A DNA stretch of 64,000 nucleotides, from positions 732 through 64,731 of the forward strand of contig DZCE01000002.1 in assembly GCA_022736375.1 (NCBI GenBank). Direction: 5' to 3'. The stretch comes from Arcobacter nitrofigilis (GTDB taxonomy: Bacteria > Campylobacterota > Campylobacteria > Campylobacterales > Sulfurovaceae). The position numbers and the translations under genes were made by a program. Below are positions 1 to 54,364 of this stretch, in pieces (position 1 is the first letter of the stretch; each line of letters opens with the position of its first letter). The notes under the pieces were generated by a model. The model ran no database searches and had not been told where the DNA came from. It was given only the letters and a program-made list of their open reading frames with translations.

Positions 1-905
1 TAGTATCATTATCTTTTGTGCCATTTATTTTAGTCGTGGCCGGGTAGAAGATATCGCTTAATATATTAGTACTATTATACTTTATGTAATTTATTTTATC
101 CTTTATGCCGTCTAATTTAGCATCGATTGTATCGGGAACGATTCTTAATATATCAGCACTTTTATCCTTTATATCATTTACTTTAGCATTGATTTTATTA
201 GGGATATAGTTTATTATATCAGAACCTTTATCTTTTAAGTCCTGTATCTTATTATCTACATTCTTTAATTTAGAATCGGCCACGGTACCGTAGGTTTCTA
301 TTTTATCCTTTATATCATTTACTTTAGCATTGATTTTATTAGGGATATAGTTTATTATATCAGAACCTTTATCTTTTAAGTCCTGTATCTTATTATCTAC
401 ATTCTTTAATTTAGAATCGGCCACGGTACCGTAGGTTTCTATTTTATCCTTTATATCATTTACTTTAGCATTGATTTTATTAGGGATATAGTTTATTATA
501 TCAGAACCTTTATCTTTTAAGTCCTGTATCTTATTATCTACATTCTTTAATTTAGAATCGGCCACGGTACCGTAGGTTTCTATTTTATCCTTTATATCAT
601 TTACTTTAGCATTGATTTTATTAGGGATATAGTTTATTATCTCCGAAACTTTATCTTTTAAGTCCGGTATTATACCATTTGGGTCATCCAGTTCGTCAGC
701 GATTGCATATGGAATATAGTTTAGTATATCGGAACTTTTATCTTTTAGGTATCTTATTTTGGAATTGATTACTTCGTTATATGTCGCTATAGTATCCTTT
801 ACGTTATTCACCTTGGTTTCAATTGCATTTGGAATATAGTTTAGTATATCGTAACCTTTATCCTTTATGTCTTGTATTTTTTCCTTAAAGTGTCCTATTT
901 TAGTA
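1..905 (-). repeat. Degenerate array of at least 8 KDKxSDI(I/L)NYIP-type 40-47-aa repeats surrounding the perfect copies
   Basis: Hand translation gives IQDIKDKGYDILNYIPNAIETK (~880-815), IRYLKDKSSDILNYIPYAIADE (~760-700), IPDLKDKVSEIINYIPNKINAK (~665-600), three perfect copies, NDIKDKSADILRIVPDTIDAK (178-119) and DGIKDKINYIKYN (~110-70). The array continues to the window edge. Confidence 0.85.
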
Positions 906-3900
906 TCTATAATATTTGGTCCGAAGTCTAACGCATTAGTACCGCCATGCGTTCTCGTATTTGTTAGTGGGGTGTCGACTATATGACTATAATTAGATTT
1001 TTTATCAACTATGTTATTATTAGTCACATCACTTGTAGAATCTAAGGTGCTCCCCTCGCGAATATTGTTAATTTTCGGTTTAACAACACTATCTTCTTTT
1101 AGGAACGCCGGCATCTTGTCCATACCATAATAGCTGACAATTTGCGGTATCCCTAATAACGTGGCTGTTAGTTTGTTCTTATCAGCTATCGTAGGGGCCT
1201 CTTTTATCTTCTTCATAAGATCATTATAGGTTGTTTTAACCCATGATGTAACCTTATCAGACGCGACACTTTCACTATCGACAGGTTCTGGGATTTTCTT
1301 ATCTTCTCCTATTGATTTGAATAATGTTTTATTACTATTATACAGCTCCGTATTCTTGTTTTTTTCTTTGATCTGATTATTAATTCCTATTTTCTTATAT
1401 TTATCTATTCTGGATATAGCCTGATCTAGACTTAAGTTAGCTTTTATATCCTCGACTTTACGCATAGCCTTATCAGTCTTGTCGTCCATTTTTCCTATTA
1501 CAACGTGGGTATGAATGGCTTTCGCGAGGTCATCTCCAAACACAGGTATATATTTGACTACCCCTTCTAACGCTACTAAACCTTTAGTAGTTACGGATAA
1601 ATCTTTGTTTTTTATGTCCGTGAATATTTTAGTTGCCGTATATGCTATACCACCTGCGGCGGCAGCTAAAGCTATTCGTAATGCACCTTTCGCTCCTAAT
1701 GAGTTAGCTAATCCCGAAAGTCCTTGATTTAATCTACTCATCGTTTGAGTGAGCCTGTTACTACTACTTGTAGCATTTCTAGTTCTTCGTCGTCTTCTAG
1801 AGGCACTTGACCCTATGCCACTACCACCGAAACCTAACCCCCTCGGTAGCCTGGATAACGCCACTATACCGGCGACACCAGCTAACATGGTGGTAGCTAT
1901 CTTGCCGGCGACACCAGTTAATAGACTAAACCCACCCTTTACTATGCTCCCGACTCCACCTAGTAGTCCGAATAATTTACTAAATATGTTCTTTTCTTTT
2001 TTCTTGTCTTTCTCACAACAAGCTTCTATTATAATTTTGTCTTCGCCCACACGGCTTGTTAGGCGCTCTCGCCATCCATTAGTTCTGAGTCCATTTCCGT
2101 TGTTACTCTTAGTATTTAGTTTATCAGCCACAACAGTCAATTTAGATACCAAGTCCACTACTCCAATTGTAGATAACAAATCTCGCATTCTATTCTGGAA
2201 TGATTCAGTTATATCACTTCTTCTTCCAACCGTTGAACTTATTATATCATCTATTGCAGTCAAGTGTAATGGGCTAGCATTATCTCGTGTAAAGAGTCTA
2301 AATTTACGTATCACCGTCGGATTAAGATAATCATAATCGGTGATTATCATTTTCTTCAGTTCATCTATATCTTTTGCTTGATAGAAATCACTTACTAGTA
2401 ATTGTCTTAATTTATCTATGTCTAGTAGATCCTCTTCTCTGGTTATAATAGATGAGAATATGCCAGATTTCCCGACAGTGTTTTCGAAGTCGACTAATCT
2501 ATCTCTAGCCGTTGTAAATTCATGATCAGATGTCGGTAATGTTATTCTTGTCGACAATGAGGCTACTATTTGGTCGATATCTATTGTCGAGAACGGATCT
2601 GGCGTGATAGAATAGTTTAATAAACCGCGTATTTTAATTATCCTCATTGGATCTAGGAGATCGGTTTCCGTTTTAACTAGGTCGGCCATACTTGTGCCAT
2701 ATATCGACGATACAGGACCACCATTCAGTAATGCCAGTTTATAGTTATCGATTATTGACGAATTATGTAGGTCGTCTGGTGTGCTAAACAAATCTGCTAT
2801 GTAACTGTAACTAGTGGATCTTAGTTTAAAAATAGCCCTTCTGAATTGTAGTCCGCGCTGAGCATCGTAGTCTATAACAATCGGCTTAGCTAAATTATTT
2901 ACAACCTTTCTGAATTTTCTGTCTGTTAACCATCTACCTATCCTCTTAAATATTCCACCTTTATCCACACCATACATTATCGCGCTTTCTAACTTTGATA
3001 TTTTTAGTGGATTGAGCAGATCGATCGGTTTACGTATCTCATTTCTTATTAGATAGCTTGGTGATAATCCAGCCAAGATATGGGAGTAACGGTGTCCTCC
3101 AGATAGTACACTAAGTTTATAGTTATCGATGATAGACGTTTTATATAAATCATTAGGATTAGAGAATAAATCGGCGATATAGTCAAAGCCGGTGGATCTT
3201 AATCGCAATATAGCTCTATTAAAGTCTGCTGTTCTCATAGCTAATGAATCAGTAAGTACTGGGGTTTCTAATTCTTTAACAACTTTTCTGAATTTGAAGT
3301 TTCTCCAAATTCGTCCAACTCTCTCGGATACAGTGCCACCAATTGGAGCTATACTATATACTATTGCTTTGTTTAGTAGATCTATTTTGATTGGATCAAG
3401 TATATCTATTGGTTTAGTTATCTCGTTAGCTATAATTATCGGTGGTGGAGTCGGTGGAATCGGACCGGCTAATGGGTCGGCTATTCCCAACACTTCAAAT
3501 TTATATTTTCGTATTGTTTTTAAGTCATATAGATCTTTTTCTCTGCTAAAAAGAGAGGCAATCCCAGTATATCCAGCACTGATCAATTTCATTTTAGCTC
3601 TTGTAAACTCCATATGTCGTCTGGCTGCCGAATCCATTACGACCGGTTTTGCTAATTCAGCAACTACATCTTCGAATTTTTTACCTCTCCACCATCTACC
3701 TATTTTAGCAAAAATGCTTTTACCAGGGGTTAGAATAGCATTTTTTAAGTCATCAAAGTAGTAGGGATTTAGCAGTTTAGTTGGTTCATTCCCTAATATA
3801 TCGTCTACTGTCCGTGGTGTCCATCTTTTATACGTTGTAATTTTAGATCTGTTAGTGTTATATTCTTCGTCAACAATGAAATCCCTAAGTTTATTAGCCT

Positions 3901-6589
3901 TTCTTAAATCAAATAATCTCCTCCAGGCCGTTCCACTATCGAGTCCCGTGATTCCGTCGGCATATAAGTTTATCAAGAATGTGCTTATCCTTGTATCGTA
4001 TTCACCTGAACGTAGATCCCTTAGTCTATTTTCGAACTTAGTTTTTAATCCGTCAGGTCCTACGACGTTATGTCGCCATAAAAATAATGTATACCATCTA
4101 CGTTCATCTACCCAACCGAGTACCTTCTTAACTGCCCACCAATTGAGACCTCGTACTTTTTTCCTAAAAGACCTAAATATAACACTTGCTTTATTATAGA
4201 GAAACTCTCTATATAGTTCAAATTTATCTATATTTAATAAGTCAACTGGGTTACTATATATATCCTCTATTCTTGTAGGTATAATGACTTCTTTTTTGAG
4301 TACGTCCAGGCCAAGTAAAGCTTTCTCCCTTAGAGAATGGGCCGTTAATACATTGAGAGTATCTTCCGGGGATACTATCTCTTCAGATATCAAACCTCTT
4401 TTGTCGATTGAATCTTCTTCGGCTATAAGTATCTCTCTGGCTCTTAAGAATCTTTTGGTAAAGTAATTCGATAACTTAGATTTACTAATATTATCTAACT
4501 CTTTTGTTACTGGACTAAATTTACTAATAGTCTGTTCTATTGGATTATCTTTACTAATAGTTTGTTCTATTGGATCATCTTTACTAATAGTTCGTTCCGT
4601 TAGATTAAAGTTATTAATAGTTTGTTTTATCGGACTATCGCTATTAATAGTTTGTTCTAATGGATTATCTGTCTTCGATCCAGCAATATTAGACTTAGAC
4701 GTAGCCGATACTGAATCATTTCCCTTATCAATATATTTAAATATCGAATCTGTATATCTTTTCGCGACATGGTCTTTTCGAATACCAGTCTTCCCGGTAT
4801 CGTTGTTATATTCTAATATGTTGTTTTTGATAAGTTGAGACTTACTATACTTATTAATTACATCGTCTGATAGTTTGATTCTATCCTTTAACGATGAGAT
4901 CTCAGAACTAATATTTATTAAATCGTCCACAGAGGAGGTTTTTATAAGATGTTGTAGATACTCGACCACCTCTTTATTTTTATTTCCGGATATTCCAGCA
5001 TAGAACTCTTCATTATCCATATCTCGTATATCCGGCGAACCACCTTTGGCTACCCATATCGTCAAGACCTCTATAAACTCACGTTTCGTACTTTCTTTGA
5101 AAGATTTTACGTCATCCTTAACTACTAGCTGATTATGTATGTTTTTAATAACGGATGTTATTCCTAATTTATTACTATCTCGAAGCATTGTGGAATCAAT
5201 GTTATTCCCTATTTTCGTCATAGTTGTAAATGTGTTACTTTCGTAGTCATACGTTGCTAACTCATTACTTTCCGAGGAGTCCCTCATTAGAGTAACTTCT
5301 CTTAGAATCCTACTCAATAATCCAGGTATTACGTCCGTGATTGTTTTCTCTGTTTTTATAGAGAATATCGCACCCTCGTTGAGTTCTTTTTCGTCAAGTA
5401 CTTCACTATTTATAACACTCTCGGCACTAAGAAGTTTAGCTAGAGATTTATATCCTTTATTTATAGTACTGCCCGATTCGTAACCTTCTGCTTTTTCGTC
5501 AAAGAATCTTTCTGGATTCAACCACATAAGTCTGGCTTTATTTATAACATCTTTCCCGACATCTGTTTGTTTAATAATCTTACCTAATTTATTGCTAATA
5601 GCTTGTTTACCGACCCCGGTTAGGGACATTGCCGCCAAATCTGCTTTGGTCATCCCCATACTGGCTAGTTGCTCGGCTTGATCGATACCATTCTCAAGCA
5701 TAGATGAGCCGGTTAACATTAGATCTTTTAGTTTATTTTTACCATTAGTAATTCTTTTCGCTAGAGCGCTCTGCCACGCTGTCTGTGTACTGAAATAATC
5801 CACCGTCGATTTAACTGCGTTAGATGTAACAGTTTGTGCGGCCATCTCACTGAGATTAATCTTACTAGTCTCAGGTAGACCAGTGTTCTTTAATATACCT
5901 CTTAGTACATCAGTTATATTAGTGAATATCTCACCATGATACGTAGTTTGTTTTCTAAGCAAGTATACGGAACGATAATTCAATTCCAGCGACTTTCTAT
6001 AGTAGGTCGCTGTTTGCGATACCTGGAAGATCCGCATCTCGCGCATCTCACTGGCCATGATGGATAATAATTTTACCTGGCTCTGTGTACCACCTCTAAT
6101 TAGGTTTTGGGTATCTTTTGTGGTAGCTAAGTTATTAGCGGCGAATAGGTCATTAATTTTATTTCTTATCGACTCCTTTTCTACTTCCTCTTCGGATAAT
6201 CTTGGTGTAGATATACTTCGCTCTTCAATAAGAAGTTCTGTTATTCTATCTTTAAAGCTACCGTCCGGTATATATCCTTTAACAGATTTAAATCCGGACT
6301 TTCCGAGTTCTTTTAATGGTTCCTTTAAATCGTCTAAGGCGGATGATAGTAAGTCTTTTGCGTTATCAAGGTCCGAAAAGTTATCTCCTAGTTCAGGCAT
6401 AGATGATTTAACTATATCCATTACATCGCCTGCTGGATCTAGTGTTAGATTATCTACTGTCTTGGTAGCTACATTCGCACCAAATGATAAAACAGGATTA
6501 CGGTCATTACTAATATCTTCGCCGTTTAACAAACTCTGGTCAAAATCATTATCAAAGCTGAATTCATCTATATCGTCAAATTTTGCCAT
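1..6589 (-). CDS. Giant virion/tail-type protein, N-terminal >2196 codons; C-terminus lies beyond the left edge (candidate tape-measure / injection / tail-lysin-type protein)
   Basis: ATG at 6589-6587 with an AAGGAAAA SD. The frame (first codon bases = 1 mod 3) was hand-translated and is open at 6589, 4549, 3694, 3307, 2932, 2026-1739, 1018-900, 439 and 178-2. No other minus-strand ORF >=60 aa is listed over 6.6 kb, and the plus-strand ORFs here are L/S-rich shadows. A Gly-rich hydrophobic segment LFGLLGGVGSIVKGGFSLLTGVAGKIATTMLAGVAGIVAL (about 1855-1975) is followed by RRRRR. Confidence 0.8.
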   Translation of the reverse strand, partial: MAKFDDIDEFSFDNDFDQSLLNGEDISNDRNPVLSFGANVATKTVDNLTLDPAGDVMDIVKSSMPELGDNFSDLDNAKDLLSSALDDLKEPLKELGKSGFKSVKGYIPDGSFKDRITELLIEERSISTPRLSEEEVEKESIRNKINDLFAANNLATTKDTQNLIRGGTQSQVKLLSIMASEMREMRIFQVSQTATYYRKSLELNYRSVYLLRKQTTYHGEIFTNITDVLRGILKNTGLPETSKINLSEMAAQTVTSNAVKSTVDYFSTQTAWQSALAKRITNGKNKLKDLMLTGSSMLENGIDQAEQLASMGMTKADLAAMSLTGVGKQAISNKLGKIIKQTDVGKDVINKARLMWLNPERFFDEKAEGYESGSTINKGYKSLAKLLSAESVINSEVLDEKELNEGAIFSIKTEKTITDVIPGLLSRILREVTLMRDSSESNELATYDYESNTFTTMTKIGNNIDSTMLRDSNKLGITSVIKNIHNQLVVKDDVKSFKESTKREFIEVLTIWVAKGGSPDIRDMDNEEFYAGISGNKNKEVVEYLQHLIKTSSVDDLINISSEISSLKDRIKLSDDVINKYSKSQLIKNNILEYNNDTGKTGIRKDHVAKRYTDSIFKYIDKGNDSVSATSKSNIAGSKTDNPLEQTINSDSPIKQTINNFNLTERTISKDDPIEQTISKDNPIEQTISKFSPVTKELDNISKSKLSNYFTKRFLRAREILIAEEDSIDKRGLISEEIVSPEDTLNVLTAHSLREKALLGLDVLKKEVIIPTRIEDIYSNPVDLLNIDKFELYREFLYNKASVIFRSFRKKVRGLNWWAVKKVLGWVDERRWYTLFLWRHNVVGPDGLKTKFENRLRDLRSGEYDTRISTFLINLYADGITGLDSGTAWRRLFDLRKANKLRDFIVDEEYNTNRSKITTYKRWTPRTVDDILGNEPTKLLNPYYFDDLKNAILTPGKSIFAKIGRWWRGKKFEDVVAELAKPVVMDSAARRHMEFTRAKMKLISAGYTGIASLFSREKDLYDLKTIRKYKFEVLGIADPLAGPIPPTPPPIIIANEITKPIDILDPIKIDLLNKAIVYSIAPIGGTVSERVGRIWRNFKFRKVVKELETPVLTDSLAMRTADFNRAILRLRSTGFDYIADLFSNPNDLYKTSIIDNYKLSVLSGGHRYSHILAGLSPSYLIRNEIRKPIDLLNPLKISKLESAIMYGVDKGGIFKRIGRWLTDRKFRKVVNNLAKPIVIDYDAQRGLQFRRAIFKLRSTSYSYIADLFSTPDDLHNSSIIDNYKLALLNGGPVSSIYGTSMADLVKTETDLLDPMRIIKIRGLLNYSITPDPFSTIDIDQIVASLSTRITLPTSDHEFTTARDRLVDFENTVGKSGIFSSIITREEDLLDIDKLRQLLVSDFYQAKDIDELKKMIITDYDYLNPTVIRKFRLFTRDNASPLHLTAIDDIISSTVGRRSDITESFQNRMRDLLSTIGVVDLVSKLTVVADKLNTKSNNGNGLRTNGWRERLTSRVGEDKIIIEACCEKDKKKEKNIFSKLFGLLGGVGSIVKGGFSLLTGVAGKIATTMLAGVAGIVALSRLPRGLGFGGSGIGSSASRRRRRTRNATSSSNRLTQTMSRLNQGLSGLANSLGAKGALRIALAAAAGGIAYTATKIFTDIKNKDLSVTTKGLVALEGVVKYIPVFGDDLAKAIHTHVVIGKMDDKTDKAMRKVEDIKANLSLDQAISRIDKYKKIGINNQIKEKNKNTELYNSNKTLFKSIGEDKKIPEPVDSESVASDKVTSWVKTTYNDLMKKIKEAPTIADKNKLTATLLGIPQIVSYYGMDKMPAFLKEDSVVKPKINNIREGSTLDSTSDVTNNNIVDKKSNYSHIVDTPLTNTRTHGGTNALDFGPNIIDTKIGHFKEKIQDIKDKGYDILNYIPNAIETKVNNVKDTIATYNEVINSKIRYLKDKSSDILNYIPYAIADELDDPNGIIPDLKDKVSEIINYIPNKINAKVNDIKDKIETYGTVADSKLKNVDNKIQDLKDKGSDIINYIPNKINAKVNDIKDKIETYGTVADSKLKNVDNKIQDLKDKGSDIINYIPNKINAKVNDIKDKIETYGTVADSKLKNVDNKIQDLKDKGSDIINYIPNKINAKVNDIKDKSADILRIVPDTIDAKLDGIKDKINYIKYNSTNILSDIFYPATTKINGTKDNDT
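160..640 (-). repeat. Perfect in-frame tandem repeat, 141-bp unit x 3.4 (units start at 160, 301, 442 and 583)
   Basis: Copies 160-300, 301-441 and 442-582 are base-for-base identical, and 583-640 is identical up to the divergence point. Each unit encodes the 47-aa sequence IETYGTVADSKLKNVDNKIQDLKDKGSDIINYIPNKINAKVNDIKDK in the giant-ORF frame. Confidence 0.95.
2560..3760 (-). repeat. Three tandem divergent ~125-129-aa coding modules inside the giant ORF (approximate bounds)
   Basis: Anchor strings are KIGRWWRGKKFEDVVAELAKP (W codon 3692-3694), RVGRIWRNFKFRKVVKELETP (3305-3307) and RIGRWLTDRKFRKVVNNLAKP (2930-2932). Spacings are 387 and 375 bp. Each is followed by a ...LRSTxxxYIADLFSxPxDL...IIDNYKL block. 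Confidence 0.8.
4521..4670 (-). repeat. 30-bp x 5 in-frame tandem repeat (decapeptide DNPIEQTISK family)
   Basis: The string TTACTAATAG / TTATTAATAG / CTATTAATAG recurs at 4521, 4551, 4581, 4611 and 4641. The units translate as DNPLEQTINS, DSPIKQTINN, FNLTERTISK, DDPIEQTISK and DNPIEQTISK. Confidence 0.9.
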
Positions 6590-6624: not shown

Positions 6625-6663
6625 AAAAATAAAAAAGTGGAGTGATTAATCACTCCACTTTTT
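6625..6663 (-). terminator. Intrinsic terminator between the 143-aa gene and the giant ORF
   Basis: Palindrome GTGGAGTGATT/AATCACTCCAC (6637-6658) is extended by A/T pairs. On the minus strand it is followed by TTTTTTATTTTT. The stop TGA of 6650-7081 lies inside the stem. Confidence 0.7.
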
Positions 6664-7081
6664 CATCATTAAAGTAGTGTCGAAATAGTATCAACCATCT
6701 GAGTGTTAATAGTATAGGCATCCTTCTTAATACATATTTTGTTCTTAGATCGGATAGAAAACTTAATATTGTACCATTTAAAATACGTTCAGATCGTAAC
6801 ATATAGTCTATAACGCTGTATTCGTTTTTCCTTATTAGATTGTCTAGCAATAGAGAAGATAGATCTAATATATTAATTATCTCTGAAAAGAAATTAGATT
6901 TTTCTATATCGTCTATTAACTCTTCGTAGACGTGTCTCGAGAATATAAGTACGTGTTTTTTACTATACTTATCCAGGAGTTCTATAAATCCAATATCTTT
7001 CGGCGCTGTTTTTAAACGTTTCTTTATCTCCTCTATAGCGAGAAGATTTGCCCCTATTAATCCTTTGAAACTATTTTGCAT
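6650..7081 (-). CDS. hypothetical protein, 143 aa
   Basis: ATG 7081 preceded by a GGTGAGGG SD. Overlaps the upstream gene by 25 nt. The stop TGA lies inside the terminator hairpin. No motifs recognised. Confidence 0.7.
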   Translation of the reverse strand: MQNSFKGLIGANLLAIEEIKKRLKTAPKDIGFIELLDKYSKKHVLIFSRHVYEELIDDIEKSNFFSEIINILDLSSLLLDNLIRKNEYSVIDYMLRSERILNGTILSFLSDLRTKYVLRRMPILLTLRWLILFRHYFNDEKVE

Positions 7082-7746
7082 AATCCCTCACCACCTTTAT
7101 TTGGTCTTTTTATCACAGATGACACATATTTTATATCCCCATGCGTTATAATGAAGATCAACTCGATAGTACTCATCTCCATTGTTAGTATACTTAGGAT
7201 ATTTATAAACGATTTCATTGTTAAATTCTTTTTCATAACAGTCTTTACTTCGTTTTTTCTCCAACCACATATAGTCGTGTCGCCATTGTCATACGAATAT
7301 ATAGTATTAATTCGTATATCAACATCCTGTATCTCCTTATTGAAAATACCTATAATATTTCTCATAAGTCTAGTTAATAGAGTAGATCTGGATTTACTAT
7401 CATTCGCAACAACCGAACTCGTTATTACAATTCCATGTGTATCGCCAAGATTAGTGATACACTCCAATTTAAAGTCATCTCCTAAATATAGCTCTATGAA
7501 ACTATTAAAAGATTGTAGAGTGAACGTCGGGTTCATGAGAACGGAAATAGCTTGTGATTTTGTCCATCCGTTAAATTTCTTTTTTAGTAGAAATCTATTT
7601 TGAATGGTTCTAGTTAGATTTCTACTAAGACTTATTTGTCTGATAAGTGTCATTAATACCTTTTTAAGCATACCTCCGGCAGATTGTTCTATCGACGACG
7701 ATAATAGTCTATCTAGAAATTCATCATCGTCTTTAGGTTTTGCCAT
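7057..7746 (-). CDS. hypothetical protein, 229 aa
   Basis: ATG 7746 with an AGGAGG SD. Overlaps the upstream ORF by 34 nt. The plus-strand ORF 7076-7603 is its antisense shadow. Confidence 0.7.
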   Translation of the reverse strand: MAKPKDDDEFLDRLLSSSIEQSAGGMLKKVLMTLIRQISLSRNLTRTIQNRFLLKKKFNGWTKSQAISVLMNPTFTLQSFNSFIELYLGDDFKLECITNLGDTHGIVITSSVVANDSKSRSTLLTRLMRNIIGIFNKEIQDVDIRINTIYSYDNGDTTICGWRKNEVKTVMKKNLTMKSFINILSILTMEMSTIELIFIITHGDIKYVSSVIKRPNKGGEGLCKIVSKD

Positions 7747-8123
7747 AATGTCGTCCTCCTAAATACTCTTTTTTTTGTTTTAATCAATGGATCTAAATGT
7801 TTTAACACCTCTTTGGTCTTGACCAGTATACACACCATGGGATATGGTATAATGTACATATCCGGCTCCGTCTTATTAACCCAAATATCTAATAGATTAT
7901 AGTACTTTTCTATACCCATCAAATATTCTTGTGTCTCACTAGGAGTACTTTGATGTACGAATATGACTACATATTCGTATCTAAATTTACTCATCTGAAT
8001 TAATTCAAGAGGATCCGCATCAGTGTCCTTCAGTTCATACACTTTCTCCAACCATAAATATAGGTCATATATTCCCTTATTATCATATGTGGGGACTTTG
8101 GTATATTTATATTTATATCTCAC
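7713..8123 (-). CDS. hypothetical protein, 136 aa, GTG start
   Basis: GTG 8123 is preceded by AAGGGAG 4-5 nt upstream and is the only start near the 5' end of the ORF. Confidence 0.6.
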   Translation of the reverse strand: MRYKYKYTKVPTYDNKGIYDLYLWLEKVYELKDTDADPLELIQMSKFRYEYVVIFVHQSTPSETQEYLMGIEKYYNLLDIWVNKTEPDMYIIPYPMVCILVKTKEVLKHLDPLIKTKKRVFRRTTLWQNLKTMMNF

Positions 8124-8165
8124 TCTACTCCCTTAAGTTATATTTCAATAGTATAATATGTAGGT

Positions 8166-8879
8166 CTATTTTAGCGGAACATCCGTTACAGTGAATCCTT
8201 TTTCATTAAATTTAGAATTTCCCTTAGAATTTAGATTACCGTTAATTGTTACATTGCTATTAAATACAACATTTGCGGTGTTAAAAGTTATCTCACCAGC
8301 TGATATCTCTACAGATGAACCATTTACATTCATAATAGCCTTACCTGTCTTTGTGCTAAAGTCGAATTTGAATACAGCTTTCTCGCCATTGTTATTTGTA
8401 GTATGTACAAACAGTTCTCCAGTTTTTGGCGAAATACCGACCGCCCATGAATTCTTTTGATCCCGTGGCACTTTCTGAGGTTTCTTTAAGTTACTAAATA
8501 GGAACAGTGCTTGTTCTTGGGGGATCAGATCCTCTTGCCCATCCCAAGATGACCAGTAGTAATCGTTGGATAGTATATTTTTCCATATAAATACCTCCAT
8601 ACCTTTTACCACTGTAGGCGGAAGAGCTCTATTAGAGTTCATAGATAACCAAGGCATTTTTAGACCCAACCCCACTTTCTTATTTGCACTTTGTTTATTT
8701 CCTTTACTATCCGTATATTTTGACTTAACATCTTTAGTCTTATCTATAGGCATATCTGCGTCAGGTACAACTGATTGTGATGGATTAACATCTAAATACA
8801 ATTGTCCTTCTTCCAAATCTTTCGTCGCTATACCTGTTCCCATTATAACAAGTATAGCACCATTACCAGAATTTGACAT
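8166..8879 (-). CDS. hypothetical virion protein, possible baseplate central spike/needle (gpV / gp5-tip-like C-terminus)
   Basis: The track start is TTG 8903; ATG 8879 (MSNSGNG...) has an AAGGAG SD 7 nt upstream. The C-terminus is a run of short beta-strand repeats (EISAGEITFNTANVVFNSNVTINGNLNSKGNSKF). It is the first gene of the operon that ends in the giant ORF. The functional call is inference only. Confidence 0.3.
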   Translation of the reverse strand: MSNSGNGAILVIMGTGIATKDLEEGQLYLDVNPSQSVVPDADMPIDKTKDVKSKYTDSKGNKQSANKKVGLGLKMPWLSMNSNRALPPTVVKGMEVFIWKNILSNDYYWSSWDGQEDLIPQEQALFLFSNLKKPQKVPRDQKNSWAVGISPKTGELFVHTTNNNGEKAVFKFDFSTKTGKAIMNVNGSSVEISAGEITFNTANVVFNSNVTINGNLNSKGNSKFNEKGFTVTDVPLK

Positions 8880-8907
8880 AGTAGTCTCCTTTCTAATGTA
8901 CAATATA

Positions 8908-10763: not shown

Positions 10764-11162
10764 ATGAAAAACTTTTCGGAAAGTGATAAATCTGATGCAA
10801 TCTTAATATCAATTGTTATTACAATTGTAGTGGCAATTATATTAGCTACAATGATGTATGCTGATAGTAATCGTGCAAAGATTCAAAACAATATTATAAA
10901 CGCCCAATTAGTAGCTACGCTACTACAGAGTGGATATATAACCAATAATACCAAATTATTAAACGACTTGAATCTCAAACGAAATCCATCGATTAAGGAT
11001 ATAACAATGACAACGATTGAGGCGGTAGCGACATCTATAGATAGAAATACATCTACTAAGTTTAAACCGAAAATAGAGTGTGTCCCAGTCACCAAAACTG
11101 ATATACAAAATCAAGTATATTCAGATTTATTTAACTTGTATAAGGATACCAAATGCAAATAA
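10764..11162 (+). CDS. probable i-spanin (type II inner-membrane protein)
   Basis: Single N-terminal TM helix AILISIVITIVVAIILATMMYA followed by a polar, helical periplasmic part. Its 3' end overlaps the lipoprotein gene. AAGGA SD. Confidence 0.55.
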   Translation: MKNFSESDKSDAILISIVITIVVAIILATMMYADSNRAKIQNNIINAQLVATLLQSGYITNNTKLLNDLNLKRNPSIKDITMTTIEAVATSIDRNTSTKFKPKIECVPVTKTDIQNQVYSDLFNLYKDTKCK

Positions 11163-11509
11163 AGATATTTTTAGTAACGATTATCATGTTGATAATAACA
11201 TCATGTACAAATACAACTGGTCTTGTTACACACGATGATAAGGTACATAAGAGAACTACACCTAATGACGTTGATACAACTAAACCAATCGTCGCCCCCC
11301 CAAAGGTCATAATAAAAACTGTTAAACAAGTTGAAACAAAGACCGTAGTGGTAAACAAATCTAAGGTGATAGAATTACCACCTCTTCCTGATCCAGAAAA
11401 ATGGAATGGTATGAATGATCAGGAGAGGATAGCTACTCTATTACAGATACTCGGTAAGATCACAATTATCATTAAGGCTAATAATGAACAGGCCTTGATA
11501 GTAAAATAA
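11153..11509 (+). CDS. probable o-spanin (outer-membrane lipoprotein)
   Basis: Signal peptide ending in the lipobox LIITSC, with Cys at aa 18. The mature part is proline-rich (VAPPKV, LPPLPDPE). Overlaps the i-spanin candidate by 10 nt. Confidence 0.55.
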   Translation: MQIKIFLVTIIMLIITSCTNTTGLVTHDDKVHKRTTPNDVDTTKPIVAPPKVIIKTVKQVETKTVVVNKSKVIELPPLPDPEKWNGMNDQERIATLLQILGKITIIIKANNEQALIVK

Positions 11510-18425: not shown

Positions 18426-20753
18426 TCACAATTTGAGACACTTGTTTAACTCAACACTTGGTAATGTCAGCCCAGTTTTATTAATAACATTTATATCGGA
18501 AAGTTTAATCATAGCTCCAGATTGATTACTTATATGACTTATTATAAATATCTGTCCGGTATTTTGAACATCTAGTATATTATTAATATTACTATATATT
18601 TTATCGCTATGTACCTCATCCATCGAAGATCCGAATTCGTCTAGAATTATTGGATAATCGTTTAAATCTAGTAGCTCCATTACAGTCAGCTTAAAGGCTA
18701 GATTTATTATATCTTTCATGGATGTGGACCCTTTCGATACATCACCACGATATACCCCATTTATAGTAAATGGAAATTCATAATTAATCCCCTTGAAGTC
18801 ATCGTCAGATATACCGGAACTTAGAAAATCCAGTTTTATATCATAGGCCCATATATCACTAAGTGTTTTATTTATCTTACCTACTATATAATCTAACGAA
18901 CTAGTCATTAAATTATCGACAGCTGTCTTAGCCTCTATGTATATAGCTGAAGTAACTTTCTTCTCCACAATAGTCTCTTCTATTTTTTTACTTACACTAT
19001 CTATGTCTCTTTTTATATTATCTACAATTATAAATTGTTCATTTAGCTCGGCTCTTTGGCTGATTAATTTTTCGATATCTTTCTTTATCAATACATCTAT
19101 GACTCTATCTATCTCTTGTAATTCATATTCTAGTACTGTCTTAGTAGCCATATCTATAAGATTAATATAATTATTTCTTTGTTCTAGTATATACTTAGAT
19201 CTCTCTAGTTCTGCTTTTAGATTATTACTCTTCTGTTCTACGATATACATTTTATTCGTTATTTCTTTTATTTCGGCTTTAATTCTAGATACTCTAGTTG
19301 TGTTATCATTATCTGATAGTATCTCGTCAATCTCTTTATATTTATCTACCAACGACGACCTATTTGTAATAGTTGTACTTAGTGTATTAATAAGTAGATC
19401 TCTTCTATCAGTATTAAATATGGATAGAATATCATTATCGCGAATATCTTCGAATAGTACATTTATAGTATTCACCCCTAGATTATATTTATCTATACTT
19501 TCCTTACGTCTAATCTTAATATTGGTTTCTTCTTGATGTAATCTATCCAGCTGCACCATTGATTCATTATATTCATTAATAGTGCCACATTTTACACAAG
19601 TTATCTTTTTTATCTTACTCCCATTTAGGGCTATACTACTTCGTATATCTATGAGATTATTATCTAATCTATCGATATCTGTTTTACCAATACGTATGTG
19701 TTCGGATATGATATTCCTAGTTACTGGTGACACCATTAGCCTATCTTCTATCGTATTCAATATTTCTGTATATAACTCTAATTGCCCTATATCCACTCCT
19801 TTTGGAAAACTTCCCACAATGATTCCTATCTCCTGTTCTATCAACGCCATACTAGATGAGTTGGTCCGGGCTAGGTCTTTATTTAGAGTATCTTTTTGAT
19901 CAGATAATTCTATATAATTTTTCTTTATAGATGACAGTTGTCCCATTATTTTGTTATCAAAGTGTTCAATTTCAGATACAGGTTGTATTACATAGTTTTC
20001 GAATTTCGATAGCTGTTCGGTTATCATTTTAACAAACGTATCTCTACTAATGTGTGTTGAGTTCTTAAGTAACTCTGTATGGAATCTTAATATGTCGTCT
20101 ATCTTATTGAGCTCTTCTTTGATTGCAGTATGTTCTTTTTCATTGTACATAAACATTAATTTATTTTTATCGTTAGTAAGCTTTTTGATATAGGTTGTTC
20201 TAAAGTTATCTACACTTCTTGCCTTATTGACAAACTCAATCGCATAGTCTATATCTAATATTCCTATTTTATTAAAAAGATCTTTTCTAGCTCTAGTGGA
20301 AGTATTTGTAAATTTAATTCTATTGTTTAATAGATCAACTATCGTAGTTGTTATACCAAATATATCTTTAATAAGTTGTAATTGAATAGTCTTGGTTCCG
20401 CCTTTATTAAGGTTATCCCCGTCTATAGTTTCGCTATTCTGAAATTTAACTAATCTTCCTATATCCGATGCATTAGAAAATATTGGATCTTTTATCATAA
20501 TACATTTTTGTAAGGTGTATTCTATATAATAGTAATGGTCGTTCTTGAATACTAATATTTTTTTGTATCCACTTTTAGAGTAATTTTCCTTGTTAATTGG
20601 CATTACATTTAGTTCTTCCCCTAATGATGATTTACCTGAACCATTTATTCCAATGATTAATTGAAATCTCTTGTCCGGGCGATATATGAGTGTATTTGAT
20701 TTTCCAAAATTTATTCGATTGTTCCCACCCAACTCCATTTTTACTATATTCAT
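18426..20753 (-). CDS. Rad50/SbcC-like SMC-type ABC ATPase with a central CxxC hook
   Basis: Walker A GINGSGKSS (aa 35-43). Long K/E/I-rich coiled-coil middle. CVKC at aa 386-389 of 775 (nt 19587-19598), exactly mid-protein. Signature-like SKGSTSM, Walker B PIILDEFGSSMD and H-loop IISHIS are present. Confidence 0.75.
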   Translation of the reverse strand: MNIVKMELGGNNRINFGKSNTLIYRPDKRFQLIIGINGSGKSSLGEELNVMPINKENYSKSGYKKILVFKNDHYYYIEYTLQKCIMIKDPIFSNASDIGRLVKFQNSETIDGDNLNKGGTKTIQLQLIKDIFGITTTIVDLLNNRIKFTNTSTRARKDLFNKIGILDIDYAIEFVNKARSVDNFRTTYIKKLTNDKNKLMFMYNEKEHTAIKEELNKIDDILRFHTELLKNSTHISRDTFVKMITEQLSKFENYVIQPVSEIEHFDNKIMGQLSSIKKNYIELSDQKDTLNKDLARTNSSSMALIEQEIGIIVGSFPKGVDIGQLELYTEILNTIEDRLMVSPVTRNIISEHIRIGKTDIDRLDNNLIDIRSSIALNGSKIKKITCVKCGTINEYNESMVQLDRLHQEETNIKIRRKESIDKYNLGVNTINVLFEDIRDNDILSIFNTDRRDLLINTLSTTITNRSSLVDKYKEIDEILSDNDNTTRVSRIKAEIKEITNKMYIVEQKSNNLKAELERSKYILEQRNNYINLIDMATKTVLEYELQEIDRVIDVLIKKDIEKLISQRAELNEQFIIVDNIKRDIDSVSKKIEETIVEKKVTSAIYIEAKTAVDNLMTSSLDYIVGKINKTLSDIWAYDIKLDFLSSGISDDDFKGINYEFPFTINGVYRGDVSKGSTSMKDIINLAFKLTVMELLDLNDYPIILDEFGSSMDEVHSDKIYSNINNILDVQNTGQIFIISHISNQSGAMIKLSDINVINKTGLTLPSVELNKCLKL

Positions 20754-20829
20754 TCTTTATCCCCTACCGATTATTCTTATCATTTAACCCCATATATAAA
20801 AAAAGAGAGAAATGTTATTTTTGGTAATA

Positions 20830-20863
20830 AGATAAGAAGGTCATTAAAGTGACCTTCTTATCT
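20830..20863 (-). terminator. Terminator/attenuator hairpin upstream of the Rad50-like gene
   Basis: 14-bp stem AGATAAGAAGGTCA/TGACCTTCTTATCT starting 3 nt after the stop of 20866-21852. Confidence 0.6.
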
Positions 20864-20865
20864 AT

Positions 20866-21852
20866 CTAAACATCTAACTCTTCTTTAACGACTCTACATC
20901 CACAAAGTCCATCTTTATAAATGTAGTATCTTTTACTATATGGTAATTCCACATTCAACTCATATCTAGAATCTGTTTCAGCTTTGTATGCTGTTGGATC
21001 ATTTAGATATTTGATGGCTTCGTCAGCTATTGCTATTTGGAGTTCACAAATTTTCTTTCTTGTTTCGCCAAACTCAGGTAAAATAATTTTTTCCGAAGCT
21101 GACTTTCTCTCGATGTAGTCTAACAAAGTGCCAGAAGTTTCTTGTCTTGGTTCTGGATTTTTACTTCTAGATTTCCAAGTCCTTGCTGAATCAAAGATCT
21201 TTTTCATGGCGACATCTATTTCGTCTACTGGTAATGATTCTGGTATCGCATCTTTCAATACATCCTTCATCTCATCAATTGGCGATTTGTCGCCAGATAG
21301 TACATTTGGGATTAGACCTTTGTTGTTATCATACCACTCAGGTGTAATATCATTACCGAAAAACGATTTCCACTTAGTTGAAAATTCTTTACTGAAAAGT
21401 TCTGGATCAGTTACCACAAAGATCTTTTCACTATCATTTTCAGTAACATTGATAGGTTTATCTATTTCATTAACAAAATCGGTAAGTCTAGCTTTAACCT
21501 CAACGTCATCGATAAGTCTAGTTACATCTTCAACCTTCTTAACCCAAGTATCTGTTGACATTACTTTCATTTTCTTGCTTTTACCTTCTATAAAAGATGT
21601 TACAATTTCACGGAATCGTACTTCTCTTATTTCCGACACATTTTTACTGAGCAAGTATGTATCCCTATCTCTAGGTCCCTGTGTAAATAAAGATAACTCA
21701 TTTTCGTCTTCCGAAATTATAATGCTAGAACTTTTCTTCGCTAACTCTGTATATGTTACGAATTCCATAGGTGTCATCATCCCGTCAATTGCTGCTAATA
21801 ACATATATACGTTAAATTTGTTCGCCTCTAAGTTTGCCATGATATTTTTCAT
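20866..21852 (-). CDS. hypothetical protein, 328 aa
   Basis: ATG 21852 with an AAAGGAAAAG SD. Acidic and helical. Contains no Mre11/SbcD phosphoesterase motifs (DxH, GDxxD, GNHE). Confidence 0.65.
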   Translation of the reverse strand: MKNIMANLEANKFNVYMLLAAIDGMMTPMEFVTYTELAKKSSSIIISEDENELSLFTQGPRDRDTYLLSKNVSEIREVRFREIVTSFIEGKSKKMKVMSTDTWVKKVEDVTRLIDDVEVKARLTDFVNEIDKPINVTENDSEKIFVVTDPELFSKEFSTKWKSFFGNDITPEWYDNNKGLIPNVLSGDKSPIDEMKDVLKDAIPESLPVDEIDVAMKKIFDSARTWKSRSKNPEPRQETSGTLLDYIERKSASEKIILPEFGETRKKICELQIAIADEAIKYLNDPTAYKAETDSRYELNVELPYSKRYYIYKDGLCGCRVVKEELDV

Positions 21853-21924: not shown

Positions 21925-22596
21925 CTACAAATCGCTTACCAATCCCATTCCTTTTAAGTAAAAAACTATAGTTCTATTTACTTGGAATCCGTCACCATAC
22001 TTTTCTATAGCATCCTGACTACTAACTCCATGTAATCTAAGTGACTTTTCATGTGCTAGTGCTAATCCCCTATCGCCACCTCTGACAGCAGCAAATTCAT
22101 GTATTGGATAATTCTGATTATGACCGGATAAAATCATCATCTCCGAGAATGTTATCTTGGCCTTAGCTGAGGAAGCTGTCATTTGCCCTGTAACATTATC
22201 ATATTTATGACTATCTACGACAGATAACTTCTTCGAAGAGGTATGCGTTGTTCTCCTTACTGGGCATAATAAAACTTTATCTTCCTTAGGCGATATAACT
22301 TCAACATCTATATCAGGATCTACTATCCTGATATGGTGGTGTATTTTAACCCCTTTACTCTCAGCTGTCTTAATTAAAGTAGCTATAGGCACATTCATCT
22401 CATGTATAGGCATAACAAAGTTCAGTATCTCATCTCCACTTATTAACCTATCTATTAACTCGTTAAATTCTTTATCTGGTAGATTAAAAATATGATCTTC
22501 GTATAATTTGATATTCCTCTTATCCCCAAATGAAATCGTACTTATAGTCTCCCTGATATGCGCCTCTTGTTTTAATCTTTTAGAACTTTTTGCCAT
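21925..22596 (-). CDS. RNA polymerase beta-subunit extreme C-terminal fragment (tail piece of a split beta)
   Basis: The track start 22680 is over-extended; ATG 22596 (MAKSSK...) has a GGAGG SD. YDNVTGQMTASSAKAKITFSEMMILSGHNQNYPIHEFAAVRGGD aligns to bacterial RpoB [47 protein letters not shown]. The C-terminal IVFYLKGMGLVSDL aligns to FNVLLKEIRSLGINIEL. Confidence 0.65.
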   Translation of the reverse strand: MAKSSKRLKQEAHIRETISTISFGDKRNIKLYEDHIFNLPDKEFNELIDRLISGDEILNFVMPIHEMNVPIATLIKTAESKGVKIHHHIRIVDPDIDVEVISPKEDKVLLCPVRRTTHTSSKKLSVVDSHKYDNVTGQMTASSAKAKITFSEMMILSGHNQNYPIHEFAAVRGGDRGLALAHEKSLRLHGVSSQDAIEKYGDGFQVNRTIVFYLKGMGLVSDL

Positions 22597-22619
22597 AGCA
22601 ATGCCTCCAATATTTAATA

Positions 22620-22625
22620 TATCAA
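22620..22625 (-). promoter_or_regulatory. Promoter-like core TTGATA at -28 of ATG 22596 (beta tail-piece gene)
   Basis: Back-to-back with the plus-strand core TTGAGT at 22644-22649 (-30 of GTG 22675) in a 78-nt divergent spacer. Confidence 0.35.
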
Positions 22626-22674
22626 ATAATCTTTTATTTTTCGTTGAGTAAAAATTAATAAAAAGGGGAATATA

Positions 22675-23541
22675 GTGCATTCTAATATACTGAGAGTCGC
22701 GAATAAGGACTATGATAAACAGCGAAGTGATATATATTACGGTATTGATTTTGGCTATACCGCTATGTCTAATAATAGTCGGATAATGGGGTATCTAAAA
22801 TTTGTTGCGGATAGGTTGCGTGCAATCAAAAATTCGATCATGGATATATTTCCGAATATACTTGGTCCTGGTAATATAAAATTGATCAAAAATATAAAAA
22901 GTAAAACGAAAGATAGGAAAAGACTAGAAAAAATGTCTACTTATTTTGACATATCTCCTAGGTTAATAAATGTAATAGAAGGTCAGACTGTTGATCTAAA
23001 GACATTGGTCACAACTCTACACGGCATTCTATCTTACGATACTTTTTCACCTGGCCAATACTTAGATATGTTAACGGAAGCAATTGGGGATTTATCTAAT
23101 AGACCTGAGGAAGCCCACGCGTTTATAGGAAAGTACCAGTCTAGTATTACGATGTTACAGAAGATAAACAAAGAATCTAGTGGTGAAATATCAAAACTAT
23201 TTGAAGGTAAAGATGACCAGATGTCGATAGGAAAATTAATTCCTAATTATTCTACTTTATCTGAAACATTACCTATATTAGATTCGTTAACGTACCACCT
23301 AGAAATAGATAATATTCAGGAATTAAAATCTAAATCAGATGAGATTAATCAGCTTACTGATATCATGCTAAAACTCTACAACGAAAGTTCGATAACATTA
23401 AGTAGTAACTCCGCAGAGTATATTATATCTCTTACTGATGTTGTAATAGATAGACTTGGTATATATAATGACTTGATATATGTACTACTTAGAACATGTG
23501 AAATAACAGATAAGTTAATAACAGAGATTTATGAATATTAG
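22675..23541 (+). CDS. hypothetical protein, 288 aa, probable GTG start
   Basis: GTG 22675 with an AAAAGGGG SD 6 nt upstream. Isolated plus-strand gene. Its stop TAG is embedded in the shared hairpin 23539-23565. Confidence 0.6.
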   Translation: MHSNILRVANKDYDKQRSDIYYGIDFGYTAMSNNSRIMGYLKFVADRLRAIKNSIMDIFPNILGPGNIKLIKNIKSKTKDRKRLEKMSTYFDISPRLINVIEGQTVDLKTLVTTLHGILSYDTFSPGQYLDMLTEAIGDLSNRPEEAHAFIGKYQSSITMLQKINKESSGEISKLFEGKDDQMSIGKLIPNYSTLSETLPILDSLTYHLEIDNIQELKSKSDEINQLTDIMLKLYNESSITLSSNSAEYIISLTDVVIDRLGIYNDLIYVLLRTCEITDKLITEIYEY

Positions 23542-23565
23542 ATAGGTGTCATAGACACCTATCTA
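23539..23565. terminator. Shared hairpin containing both stop codons of a convergent gene pair
   Basis: TAGATAGGTGTC-ATA-GACACCTATCTA. The plus-strand stop TAG (23539-23541) and the minus-strand stop (23559-23561) are both in the stem. Confidence 0.65.
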
Positions 23566-24254
23566 ATTAATCCGATTGCATTATATAGACGTCTTAATAT
23601 TTTTCTAATCCACCTAATAATATTCATCTTACTTTGTTCTTGACGTAACTCGATATTTTCTTCCGTAGATGAAACATTAATTACTCCATTATTCACATCC
23701 ATTGTAGTGTTACTAATAACAGGATATATGTTATTAAATGTGATATCGGAGATAGGTGTATTTTTTAAGTTAATGAATGCTCGTACATCAGGTAGTAACT
23801 CACCTAAAGCTTCCACTACCTTGAATAGCTTCACATAGTCCTTAACATCTACGTCAACTACAAATATATGTTTACCGGCAAGATATCTATTTATGATAGT
23901 AGTTGTAATATTTATAAATATATGATCATCATCACTGTATGCATCAGAAATAGTTATATCTTGTATATATCGAGTTTCTATACACTTGGTCTCTCTTACA
24001 TAAGTATTATATTGTATTCTCAACACTTTACTAATACTGAAAATATATAAATCCATCTTCCCTGTCTTAGGGATTGGGTATCCTCTTTCGATATCCTCTT
24101 TGGTAATCTCATAAGATTGCTCATTCAACGACTGTCTGGAGATATTATCATTAATTAAATTAACATTAGCATCTCCATTATTATCGTCATGTAATGCAAT
24201 AAATTGAGTCAATCCTTTTATCGTAAGACCATTCGGTAAAACTATGTTTTCCAT
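23559..24254 (-). CDS. hypothetical protein, 231 aa
   Basis: ATG 24254 with an AGGAGTG SD, 13 nt after the upstream stop. Confidence 0.7.
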   Translation of the reverse strand: MENIVLPNGLTIKGLTQFIALHDDNNGDANVNLINDNISRQSLNEQSYEITKEDIERGYPIPKTGKMDLYIFSISKVLRIQYNTYVRETKCIETRYIQDITISDAYSDDDHIFINITTTIINRYLAGKHIFVVDVDVKDYVKLFKVVEALGELLPDVRAFINLKNTPISDITFNNIYPVISNTTMDVNNGVINVSSTEENIELRQEQSKMNIIRWIRKILRRLYNAIGLIR

Positions 24255-36526: not shown

Positions 36527-36562
36527 AAAAGAGCTATACCATTAATTTGGTATAGCTCTTTT
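36527..36562 (-). terminator. Terminator after the paralogue triplet
   Basis: 15-bp stem AAAAGAGCTATACCA/TGGTATAGCTCTTTT with the stop TAA (36542-36544) in the loop. T-rich 3' side on the minus strand. Confidence 0.65.
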
Positions 36563-39897: not shown

Positions 39898-39906
39898 ACC
39901 GTCCCC

Positions 39907-41640: not shown

Positions 41641-41652
41641 ATACTCTCCTTA

Positions 41653-42618
41653 TTAACTAATAACTGGCATTGGTAACTTCGCCGGTAGACTACTATCGGA
41701 TAACGTTACTGTACGTAATACCAAATATTCCCACTGTTGCTGCTTATGAGAGATATATGGTCTAATTCCTAATAGATACTTACTACCCTCTTTTATAAAT
41801 GACATAAACGATGGTATAATGAGGTTCTCATCTGTCGCCTTACCAGAGTATATTAACAACCCGTCGCTATATAATTCAACATCAAATCCGGTAGACAATT
41901 GAATATCTTGGATTCTAAAATGTTCCAGACTATCCTTAACGATAACGATGGAATTAATGTTAGTTACTGGTTTAACTAACCTAGATTGAGTTGTTATGAA
42001 TATAAACGAAGAAGGTTCACTAACATCATTTGTTGTGCTGTGAAACATTGCCTTAATCTGATATAGTTTACCCTCTTCTAAAACTATGTCTGATAGATCA
42101 TAATACCCTAGATTATTTTGATCCTCAATTACACAATCTATAATCTCACCATAGATATCTAATAGAAATATAGTAATTGCTTTCTTTTTACCATTCCCGT
42201 TTACAGCAAATCCATCAATTTTTATTTTGAACCCTGTTTTGGGGTGAGCTGATATAGAATAATCTGAAGATATTACTGGTCTAGCTACCAAAGACGGGAC
42301 CGATATATTTATCGGAGATGCTCTCTCTGCTATATCTTTCATTGGCACTATCTGCGTCTTTGTACCAGCACGCATAATAATCGGTTCTTGGTTATCTGGA
42401 TCTGGTTGTACATTCTGAAAAAATGTAACTTCGAGAAGATACTCTTTTTCAGGGTAATATGGGATATTTTTGAAAACTAGCTTAGTAGTTGTAGATTCGT
42501 CCCCTGTATCTCCGGACTTGGCCAATACCCTAGTGAAATTATCTATACCCAATCTATAGTCTACTCGTATTATCGGATGATCTGTCTTAATCGGTCCAAT
42601 GGACATTTGGAAATCCAT
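41653..42618 (-). CDS. hypothetical virion protein, 321 aa
   Basis: AAGGAG SD. SPINISVP and GKKKAITIFLLDIYGEIIDCVIE resemble the N-terminal module of the 623- and 637-aa proteins. Confidence 0.6.
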   Translation of the reverse strand: MDFQMSIGPIKTDHPIIRVDYRLGIDNFTRVLAKSGDTGDESTTTKLVFKNIPYYPEKEYLLEVTFFQNVQPDPDNQEPIIMRAGTKTQIVPMKDIAERASPINISVPSLVARPVISSDYSISAHPKTGFKIKIDGFAVNGNGKKKAITIFLLDIYGEIIDCVIEDQNNLGYYDLSDIVLEEGKLYQIKAMFHSTTNDVSEPSSFIFITTQSRLVKPVTNINSIVIVKDSLEHFRIQDIQLSTGFDVELYSDGLLIYSGKATDENLIIPSFMSFIKEGSKYLLGIRPYISHKQQQWEYLVLRTVTLSDSSLPAKLPMPVIS

Positions 42619-42650
42619 ATATACTCCTTTTTTTTATTTTTATTTATCAG

Positions 42651-42684: not shown

Positions 42685-42691
42685 GAGTTCT

Positions 42692-43489: not shown

Positions 43490-43517
43490 TTCTAATCCTC
43501 CTTCATATATTTTATTC

Positions 43518-54363: not shown

Positions 54364-54364
54364 A

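Follow-up and report, generated by a model that had tools for sequence, protein, structure and literature searches.

A giant, repeat-rich relative of phiKZ gp181 in a jumbo-phage contig from a freshwater metagenome

The closest described counterpart of the gene analyzed here is gp181 of phage phiKZ (PHIKZ181, NP_803747.1), a protein of 2237 aa with an SLT domain at aa 1885-1978, whose gene lies between the virion RNA polymerase gene gp180 and the baseplate gene gp182. It has been reported as a virion-associated peptidoglycan hydrolase (Briers 2008, as cited in PMC5380687). Transposon-insertion sequencing (Tn-seq) gave no insertions in orf181, which is described as essential, and the authors call it 'likely the tape measure' (PMC12676376). 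Virion association and essentiality are known in phiKZ alone. A second point of comparison is pb2 of phage T5 (Boulanger 2008; Linares 2023, PMC10038345), a helical ruler of 1219 aa belonging to a non-contractile 160-nm tail. It occupies the tube lumen in the form of an ill-defined coiled coil, is expelled on triggering, forms a channel, inserts into the membrane a 46-residue hydrophobic stretch that provides for two transmembrane helices, and releases a muralytic domain (PMC10038345). Ruler and hydrolase are also joined in one polypeptide in tape-measure proteins (TMPs) with embedded lytic domains, e.g. that of Staphylococcus phage phiIPLA35, as cited in PMC8570332. We compare with these systems a giant gene on the minus strand at the left end of the window, i.e. 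the whole stretch of 64,000 nucleotides that was analyzed (contig DZCE01000002.1 of assembly GCA_022736375.1, filed under Arcobacter nitrofigilis, positions 732 to 64,731 of the forward strand).

The giant gene and the gp181 family

Translation of the window shows that the minus-strand frame running from ATG 6589 to position 2 contains 2196 codons without a stop; at 35.6% GC such a run would arise by chance with a probability of about 1e-70. An AAAGGA string lies upstream of the ATG, at the distance of a ribosome-binding site. Since the N-terminus of the product (MAKFDD...DFD) aligns residue by residue with that of a full-length protein of 3101 aa, hereafter P0001 (uncultured phage, JGI 3300028549 contig Ga0308317_1285045), ATG 6589 is the true start. 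A near-identical metagenome contig, L001, adds 258 residues past the window edge; these are repeats and the frame is still open at their end. The giant open reading frame (ORF) is a real gene, which comprises at least 2454 codons and runs off the left edge of the window. Its 3' end was recovered neither among viral contigs searched with repeat and N-terminal queries, nor in two metagenome scans and two genome-collection scans, nor when viral contigs were scanned for exact DNA matches to the end of L001. Every assembly found ends in or before the repeat array, and the gene is incomplete in all of them. An earlier sequence-only reading, made by a model from the letters of the window, had described the frame as open from ATG 6589 to position 2, which is correct; it had also proposed a leftward extension to the stop codon, which gained the 258 open residues of L001 without reaching a stop. 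Plus-strand ORFs inside the gene (e.g. 1749-2330 and 3192-3761) are antisense shadows of the long frame.

The first ~640 aa of the product match PHROG 3201, the gp181 family (E=4e-40; profile of 2408 positions), and aa 198-547 align pairwise with aa 246-605 of phiKZ gp181 (E=8e-9). Homologues of the N-terminal domain were found by tblastn in about 50 cultured phiKZ-like phages (Goslar, PhiEaH1, RSL2/RSF1, PCH45, AgentSmith and others), where the genes are variously labelled tail fibre, chitinase, lytic transglycosylase or tail lysozyme. A scan of 1.84 billion representatives yielded 1098 relatives of this domain at E<=1e-3, 448 of them at E<=1e-10, and the family motifs of the domain occupy invariant alignment columns. 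Among the matches listed, relatives measure 1424-3857 aa, few being shorter; the window gene, with at least 2454 codons, falls within the size range of the family (~1400-3900 aa). Only one relative is close: P0001, with 37-38% identity over ~1450 aa. Judged by these homologies, the ORF adds to the known gp181 family a new, divergent member with unusually many repeats, and does not represent a new system. The likeness to gp181 had already been suggested in the sequence-only reading, and its description of gp181 as a protein of about 2200 aa with a C-terminal transglycosylase agrees with the actual size and SLT domain given above.

In its usual plan the family has a conserved helical N-terminus and a variable middle, followed by a hydrophobic segment and, after it, a peptidoglycan hydrolase of exchangeable type. 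Of 177 members, 152 (86%) carry a strongly hydrophobic segment rich in Gly and Ala, at a median position of aa 1296 or ~0.60 of the length, and its position scales with protein length (rho 0.61). In the window protein it is found at aa 1539-1582, at the place expected for the family (~50-70% of the length). A cell-wall hydrolase Pfam domain occurs in 27 of 39 relatives and is of about ten kinds (SLT, NlpC/P60, Amidase_2, phage lysozyme, VanY, M23, GH19, glucosaminidase and others). Where mapped, it is C-terminal to the hydrophobic segment and lies 350-600 aa before the C-terminus. P0001, which is complete, carries NlpC/P60 at aa 2517-2612 of its 3101 aa and a lysozyme-like stretch further on. 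Pfam detects no hydrolase domain in the 2196 aa of the window, and none is visible in the further 258 residues of L001, which read as repeats and went without a domain scan; the hydrolase domain of the window gene is predicted to lie beyond the window. The sequence-only reading had likewise expected any such domain there, which agrees with its place in relatives. In Bacillus phage AgentSmith (L007 8938-18326) the family is represented by two adjacent genes that divide the parts between them, one of 1044 aa with the N-terminal domain and one of 2081 aa with VanY and SLT.

The window protein thus resembles phiKZ gp181 in its N-terminal homology, its giant size, its Gly/Ala-rich uncharged stretch at ~60% of the length and its tail-centre gene neighbourhood. 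It differs in that identity is ~21% and limited to the N-terminal third, in its repeat load (0.106, compared to 0.005 in gp181) and in its hydrophobic stretch, which is weaker in gp181. The neighbours are also different: the phiKZ gene lies between gp180 and gp182, whereas the window gene immediately follows a four-gene operon with a gp164-like first gene. This gene (8166-8903, likely true start 8879) matches PHROG 3216 (E=3e-30) and, by tblastn, the locus of the phiKZ central spike gp164 (E=2.5e-9), and homologues of its product carry the annotation 'baseplate puncture protein' in other phages. P0001 shares with the window protein the middle region, one module, the NGNG motif, the Cys pair and Lys tract, the hydrophobic segments and the Arg cluster. 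Upstream synteny is shared as well, the order of operon and giant gene being conserved in its contig (L008, 65 kb). Where the window protein has three modules, P0001 has a single one; the repeats that follow its hydrophobic segment are of other families, and its downstream genes are not found in the window.

Features along the protein and repeat variation

The features of the gene and of the region just upstream are as follows, in nucleotide coordinates of the window.

2-6589, minus strand: giant ORF, 5' 2196 codons (open frame; L001 extension; colinear with the 3101-aa P0001 at 37-38% identity)
4670-6589, minus strand: conserved N-terminal domain, aa 1-640, the family signature, with motifs YYRKSLELNYR, KNTGLPE and IPGLLSRIL (PHROG 3201; gp181 pairwise match; invariant alignment columns)
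4520-4670, minus strand: five decapeptide repeats in 30-nt units (Tandem Repeats Finder, TRF: period 30, 5.0 copies, 78% matches; one unit fewer in L002)
3785-4492, minus strand: basic/aromatic-rich middle, aa 700-935, shared with P0001 alone (BLASTP)
2645-3784, minus strand: three tandem modules of ~125 aa, M1 aa 936-1062, M2 aa 1063-1187, M3 aa 1188-1315 (pairwise identity 41-48%)
2030-2644, minus strand: aa 1316-1520, conserved with P0001, ending in NNGNGLRTNGW at nt 2072-2104 (alignment; motif survey)
1991-2020, minus strand: Cys pair and Lys-rich tract CCEKDKKKEK (CCEEEKEKKK in P0001)
1844-1975, minus strand: Gly-rich hydrophobic hairpin-like segment LFGLLGG...IVALSRLP, aa 1539-1582, candidate membrane-inserting helices (Kyte-Doolittle, KD, 19-residue mean 1.56-1.77; predicted helical)
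1784-1798, minus strand: Arg5 cluster RRRRR in a Gly/Ser-rich loop (RNRRRGTRR at the aligned place in P0001)
1634-1699, minus strand: third, weaker Ala/Gly-rich hydrophobic helix, aa 1631-1652 (KD 19-residue mean 1.31; conserved in P0001, GKAGVAIAALTTSYGAAKIF)
869-1633, minus strand: Lys/Ile/Asp-rich region, aa 1653-1907, after the hydrophobic segments (partly alignable to P0001)
2-868, minus strand: open-ended KDKxSDIxNYIP array, aa 1908-2196 and beyond (TRF; repeat search; register listing)
6628-6667, minus strand: terminator-like hairpin separating the giant gene from the upstream operon (18-pair stem and T-run)
6650-8903, minus strand: four-gene upstream operon (gp164 homologue, then three ORFans of 136, 229 and 143 aa)

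The AlphaFold2 (AF2) model of the N-terminus is almost wholly alpha-helical, with one helix of 80 residues and a predicted local-distance difference test (pLDDT) score of 70-86 for aa 410-620; a Foldseek search of this model against the PDB gave no match (best E=0.27). The decapeptide units that follow read DNPLEQTINS, DSPIKQTINN, FNLTERTISK, DDPIEQTISK and DNPIEQTISK. The module is single-copy in P0001, where one segment (922-1058) aligns both to M1 and to M3; for the three modules (aa 936-1315), an AF2 model of aa 936-2135 made from the single sequence gave no information. Alignment consensus and motif survey identify NNGNGLRTNGW as a variant of the family motif DxDGDGxRDGS, which often precedes the hydrophobic segment. 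The segment itself (aa 1539-1582) has a marginal match to the type III secretion translocator AopB (E=0.01, PDB sequence search). The core of the C-terminal array is a 141-nt (47-aa) unit present in 3.6 copies with 98% identity and built of sub-repeats of 22 and 25 aa. This array has a sharp hydrophobic periodicity of 3.62 residues, AF2 predicts it as continuous amphipathic helices of 76 and 153 residues (pLDDT 50-65), and its Pfam matches are all sub-threshold (apolipoprotein/Baculo_PEP_C/spectrin-type).

The features that the sequence-only reading had listed along the protein are all found again: a helical N-terminal region, five decapeptide repeats (given as 4521-4670), a Cys pair, Lys tract, Gly-rich segment and Arg5 cluster at about 1790-2020, and an open-ended KDKxSDIxNYIP array (given as 1-905), present from nt 868 to the window edge. 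Its three ~125-aa modules exist as well, at 2645-3784 rather than 2560-3760. Its description of three nested repeat systems does not hold, since the systems are serial along the protein and only the C-terminal array has a nested periodicity. The helix at nt 1634-1699 was absent from its list.

Contig look-up identified five loci from lake metagenomes which encode the neighbouring 143-aa protein; the lake samples of origin are JGI 3300000228/232/235, SRR407181 and SRR1559230. In gapped alignment, L001 shows 4 base differences from the window and one 141-nt unit fewer; L002 differs by 3 bases, and lacks the same 141-nt unit and one 30-nt unit. All length differences among the near-identical assemblies (over 6.3-6.6 kb; units at 4520-4670 and 160-670) are whole in-frame units. 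These copy-number differences are either real polymorphism or repeat collapse in assembly. The 141-nt difference could have arisen in assembly by collapse, its repeats being near-perfect; for the 30-nt difference a real polymorphism is more likely, because the 30-nt units are only 71-82% alike. With 3-4 real base differences, a between-strain test of the ratio of nonsynonymous to synonymous substitutions has no power. A set of ~200 apparent mismatches between strains was discarded as a register shift due to the repeat-unit indel.

The internal-repeat load of the window protein (10.6% of residues in recurring 6-mers) is the highest of the 175 members sampled, for which the median is 0.6%. As the repeat families that P0001 carries in the equivalent region, after the hydrophobic segment, are unrelated to those of the window gene, the three repeat systems appear to be lineage-specific expansions. 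The triplication of the module moves the hydrophobic segment from ~aa 1286 to aa 1539, i.e. to about the 90th percentile of the family.

Proposed function and competing explanations

By analogy with T5 pb2, and in view of the published work on phiKZ orf181, we consider it probable that the gene encodes a giant tail protein of the gp181 family which acts as a ruler in the tube and is then ejected, inserts into the membrane and digests the cell wall. A few copies of the mostly alpha-helical protein would lie inside the tail tube, where the ~1500 aa ahead of the hydrophobic segment would serve as a length ruler during tail assembly. Once the sheath contracts and the spike is lost, the protein would be expelled ahead of the DNA; its hydrophobic helices would insert into the host membrane and help to form a conduit, and the cell-wall hydrolase domain predicted beyond the window would digest peptidoglycan locally. 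The first two pb2-type parts are present in order in the window protein, the muralytic domain being known from relatives only. Dimensions are compatible with a ruler: at 1.5 A per residue, the ~1300 aa that precede the hydrophobic segment would span ~195 nm, compared to the 200-nm tail of phiKZ, which has a 68-A lumen in the 2026 cryo-electron microscopy atlas (PMC13250141), and 3-6 copies would by calculation fill 13-27% of the lumen of a phiKZ-sized tube. Over the family, the first hydrophobic segment begins 1030-1540 aa from the N-terminus, which would predict tails of ~155-230 nm. The module triplication would make the presumed ruler ~250 aa longer than in the closest relative. The C-terminal array probably does not set tail length, because it is located after the membrane segment. 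Apart from its size and its non-contractile tail, pb2 is set apart by the lack of detectable sequence similarity; members of the gp181 family come from jumbo phages with contractile tails, and their hydrophobic segment is followed by 600-1500 aa.

Several observations weigh against this proposal. The hydrolase of the window gene is not seen. The phiKZ atlas, which covers 40 proteins, contains no model of gp181 and designates no tape measure (PMC13250141), so that a location in the tube lumen is unproven even in phiKZ. The comparison with tape-measure families recommended by the sequence-only reading was negative: no TMP model of Pfam or NCBIfam matches the window protein, P0001 or gp181 at E<=0.1, and the TMPs with embedded lytic domains belong to recognised TMP families that the window protein does not match. 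Confidence in the AF2 models is low (mean pLDDT 57 and 37); at this level helices are predicted for the N-terminal 640 aa and for the C-terminal array, and the modules gave no prediction. The hydrophobic segment holds Lys residues and many Gly, its transmembrane character being judged by a hydropathy scale only, and phiKZ gp181 has only a weak Gly/Ala-rich stretch at aa 1297-1327 (KD 1.22). Finally, the PDB sequence search retrieved no related solved structure beyond the marginal match to AopB.

An alternative is an ejected pilot or conduit protein of the tail or the particle interior, functionally of the T7 gp16 type, lytic and membrane-active, with another protein as the ruler. The constants of the family, a hydrophobic segment and a swappable hydrolase, are suited to envelope penetration, no tape-measure model matches, and the full 2237 aa of gp181 at 1.5 A per residue would span ~335 nm, far above the 200-nm phiKZ tail. 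We nevertheless regard this as unlikely, though worth keeping in mind: no other tape-measure candidate is known in phiKZ and the Tn-seq authors give this role to orf181 (PMC12676376), the hydrophobic segment lies further from the N-terminus in longer proteins (rho 0.61), at a distance that fits tail length in phiKZ-sized members, and the gene sits with tail-centre genes. There is also a slim chance that, after ejection, the hairpin and the array of amphipathic helices, with its apolipoprotein-like periodicity, remodel the host inner membrane; if so, repeat copy number would tune the membrane-shaping part and not tail length.

A baseplate role was proposed for gp181 in 2008, and a review table places it in a 'needle-like cell-puncturing device' (PMC5380687); the window gene does adjoin a spike gene. 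This proposal is largely refuted by the atlas, which builds the puncturing device from gp164, gp163.1, gp101 and gp182, without gp181 (PMC13250141). The window protein is moreover predicted to be alpha-helical and not a beta-helix, and a separate gp164 homologue is encoded in the window, so that we hold a part in such a needle to be very improbable. Still less credit can be given to the label 'tail fiber protein' attached to PHROG 3201 and to several RefSeq records. It is automatic; Pfam finds no fibre, receptor-binding or beta-rich domain, the AF2 models are alpha-helical, hydrophobic segments and internal lytic domains are not features of fibres, and the putative tail fibres of phiKZ are gp145 and gp146 in the Tn-seq preprint (PMC12676376). 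That the ORF might be an assembly chimera or a non-coding open frame is suggested by the fact that all assemblies break inside the repeat array and that the 141-nt copy number varies between them. The chance of this is negligible in view of the open-frame probability (~1e-70), of the agreement of three independent assemblies except for whole in-frame units, and of the colinear match (37-38% identity) to P0001, which is complete with its 3101 aa and lies on a contig of 65 kb.

Genomic setting, phage lineage and outlook

The four-gene operon announced upstream by the sequence-only reading, with a spike-like first product, is present, and this product is the gp164 homologue (PHROG 3216); the three ORFans that follow (136, 229 and 143 aa) match no PHROG family. 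The same reading had assigned to the giant gene a terminator and promoter of its own. The terminator-like hairpin (6667-6628) is there; the promoter finds no support, a k-mer comparison of upstream regions yielding only the ribosome-binding site as a shared motif. A sigma-70 scan gave 20 sites compared to 15.5 expected, a figure that carries no meaning where the phage has RNA polymerases of its own. By eye, an AT-rich string resembling TATA(T/A)TATA can be seen repeatedly, 30-50 nt ahead of several genes (e.g. 7713-8123, 20866-21852, 23559-24254, 47404-49452, 50467-51210 and 54365-54799), the giant gene not being among them; it may be a phage promoter element.

No near DNA match to the window exists among 50,697 phage records. 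Window proteins match phiKZ-type major-capsid, head-protease and structural PHROG families, and four separate genes on the minus strand (21925-22680, 45522-47420, 47404-49452 and 61135-63708) match phiKZ-type RNA polymerase beta-subunit PHROGs, which fits the split virion and non-virion multisubunit polymerases of the phiKZ-like group. Long runs of genes of 250-640 aa, at 36542-45428 and 50467-55854, have no PHROG match; the lineage is therefore very divergent. From its protein matches, we place the window in a deep-branching phiKZ-like jumbo phage, of the nucleus-forming type, from a freshwater metagenome.

Other observations concern the rest of the window and the contig of P0001. A block like phiKZ gp175-gp178 is found at 58129-63708 (minus strand), with a head maturation protease, a structural protein, an unassigned 475-aa gene and an RNA polymerase beta piece; it is ~50 kb from the giant gene, whereas in phiKZ it is contiguous with gp180-gp181-gp182. 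GC rises to 0.41 at 56-58 kb, over gene 55881-58118 (PHROG 3181). Two small overlapping plus-strand genes without PHROG match look, from their sequences, like an i-spanin/o-spanin pair: the 132-aa product of 10764-11162 has an N-terminal transmembrane helix, and the 118-aa product of 11153-11509 has a signal peptide ending in a lipobox-like LIITS|C and a Pro-rich body. In L008 an AAA_15/AAA_21-type ATPase (20218-21468) lies ~900 bases downstream of the giant gene, with one 183-aa gene between. Its nearest relatives are in metagenome-assembled genomes of Sulfurovum/Campylobacterota, and this bacterial-type accessory gene may be host-derived and thus a weak hint to the host of that relative. The other genes downstream of P0001 are ORFans and a RecJ-like gene.

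No virion component of nucleus-forming jumbo phages is larger than the gp181-type proteins, and few are so poorly understood. One conserved scaffold combined with about ten hydrolase types amounts to a catalogue of virion-associated lysins matched to different hosts. Co-occurring, near-identical strains that differ by whole repeat units constitute a natural experiment on this family. The difference in module number between the window gene and P0001 is likewise a natural test of the ruler idea: if the part of the protein ahead of the membrane segment is the ruler, the two extra ~125-aa modules predict a tail ~35-40 nm longer than that of the P0001 phage.

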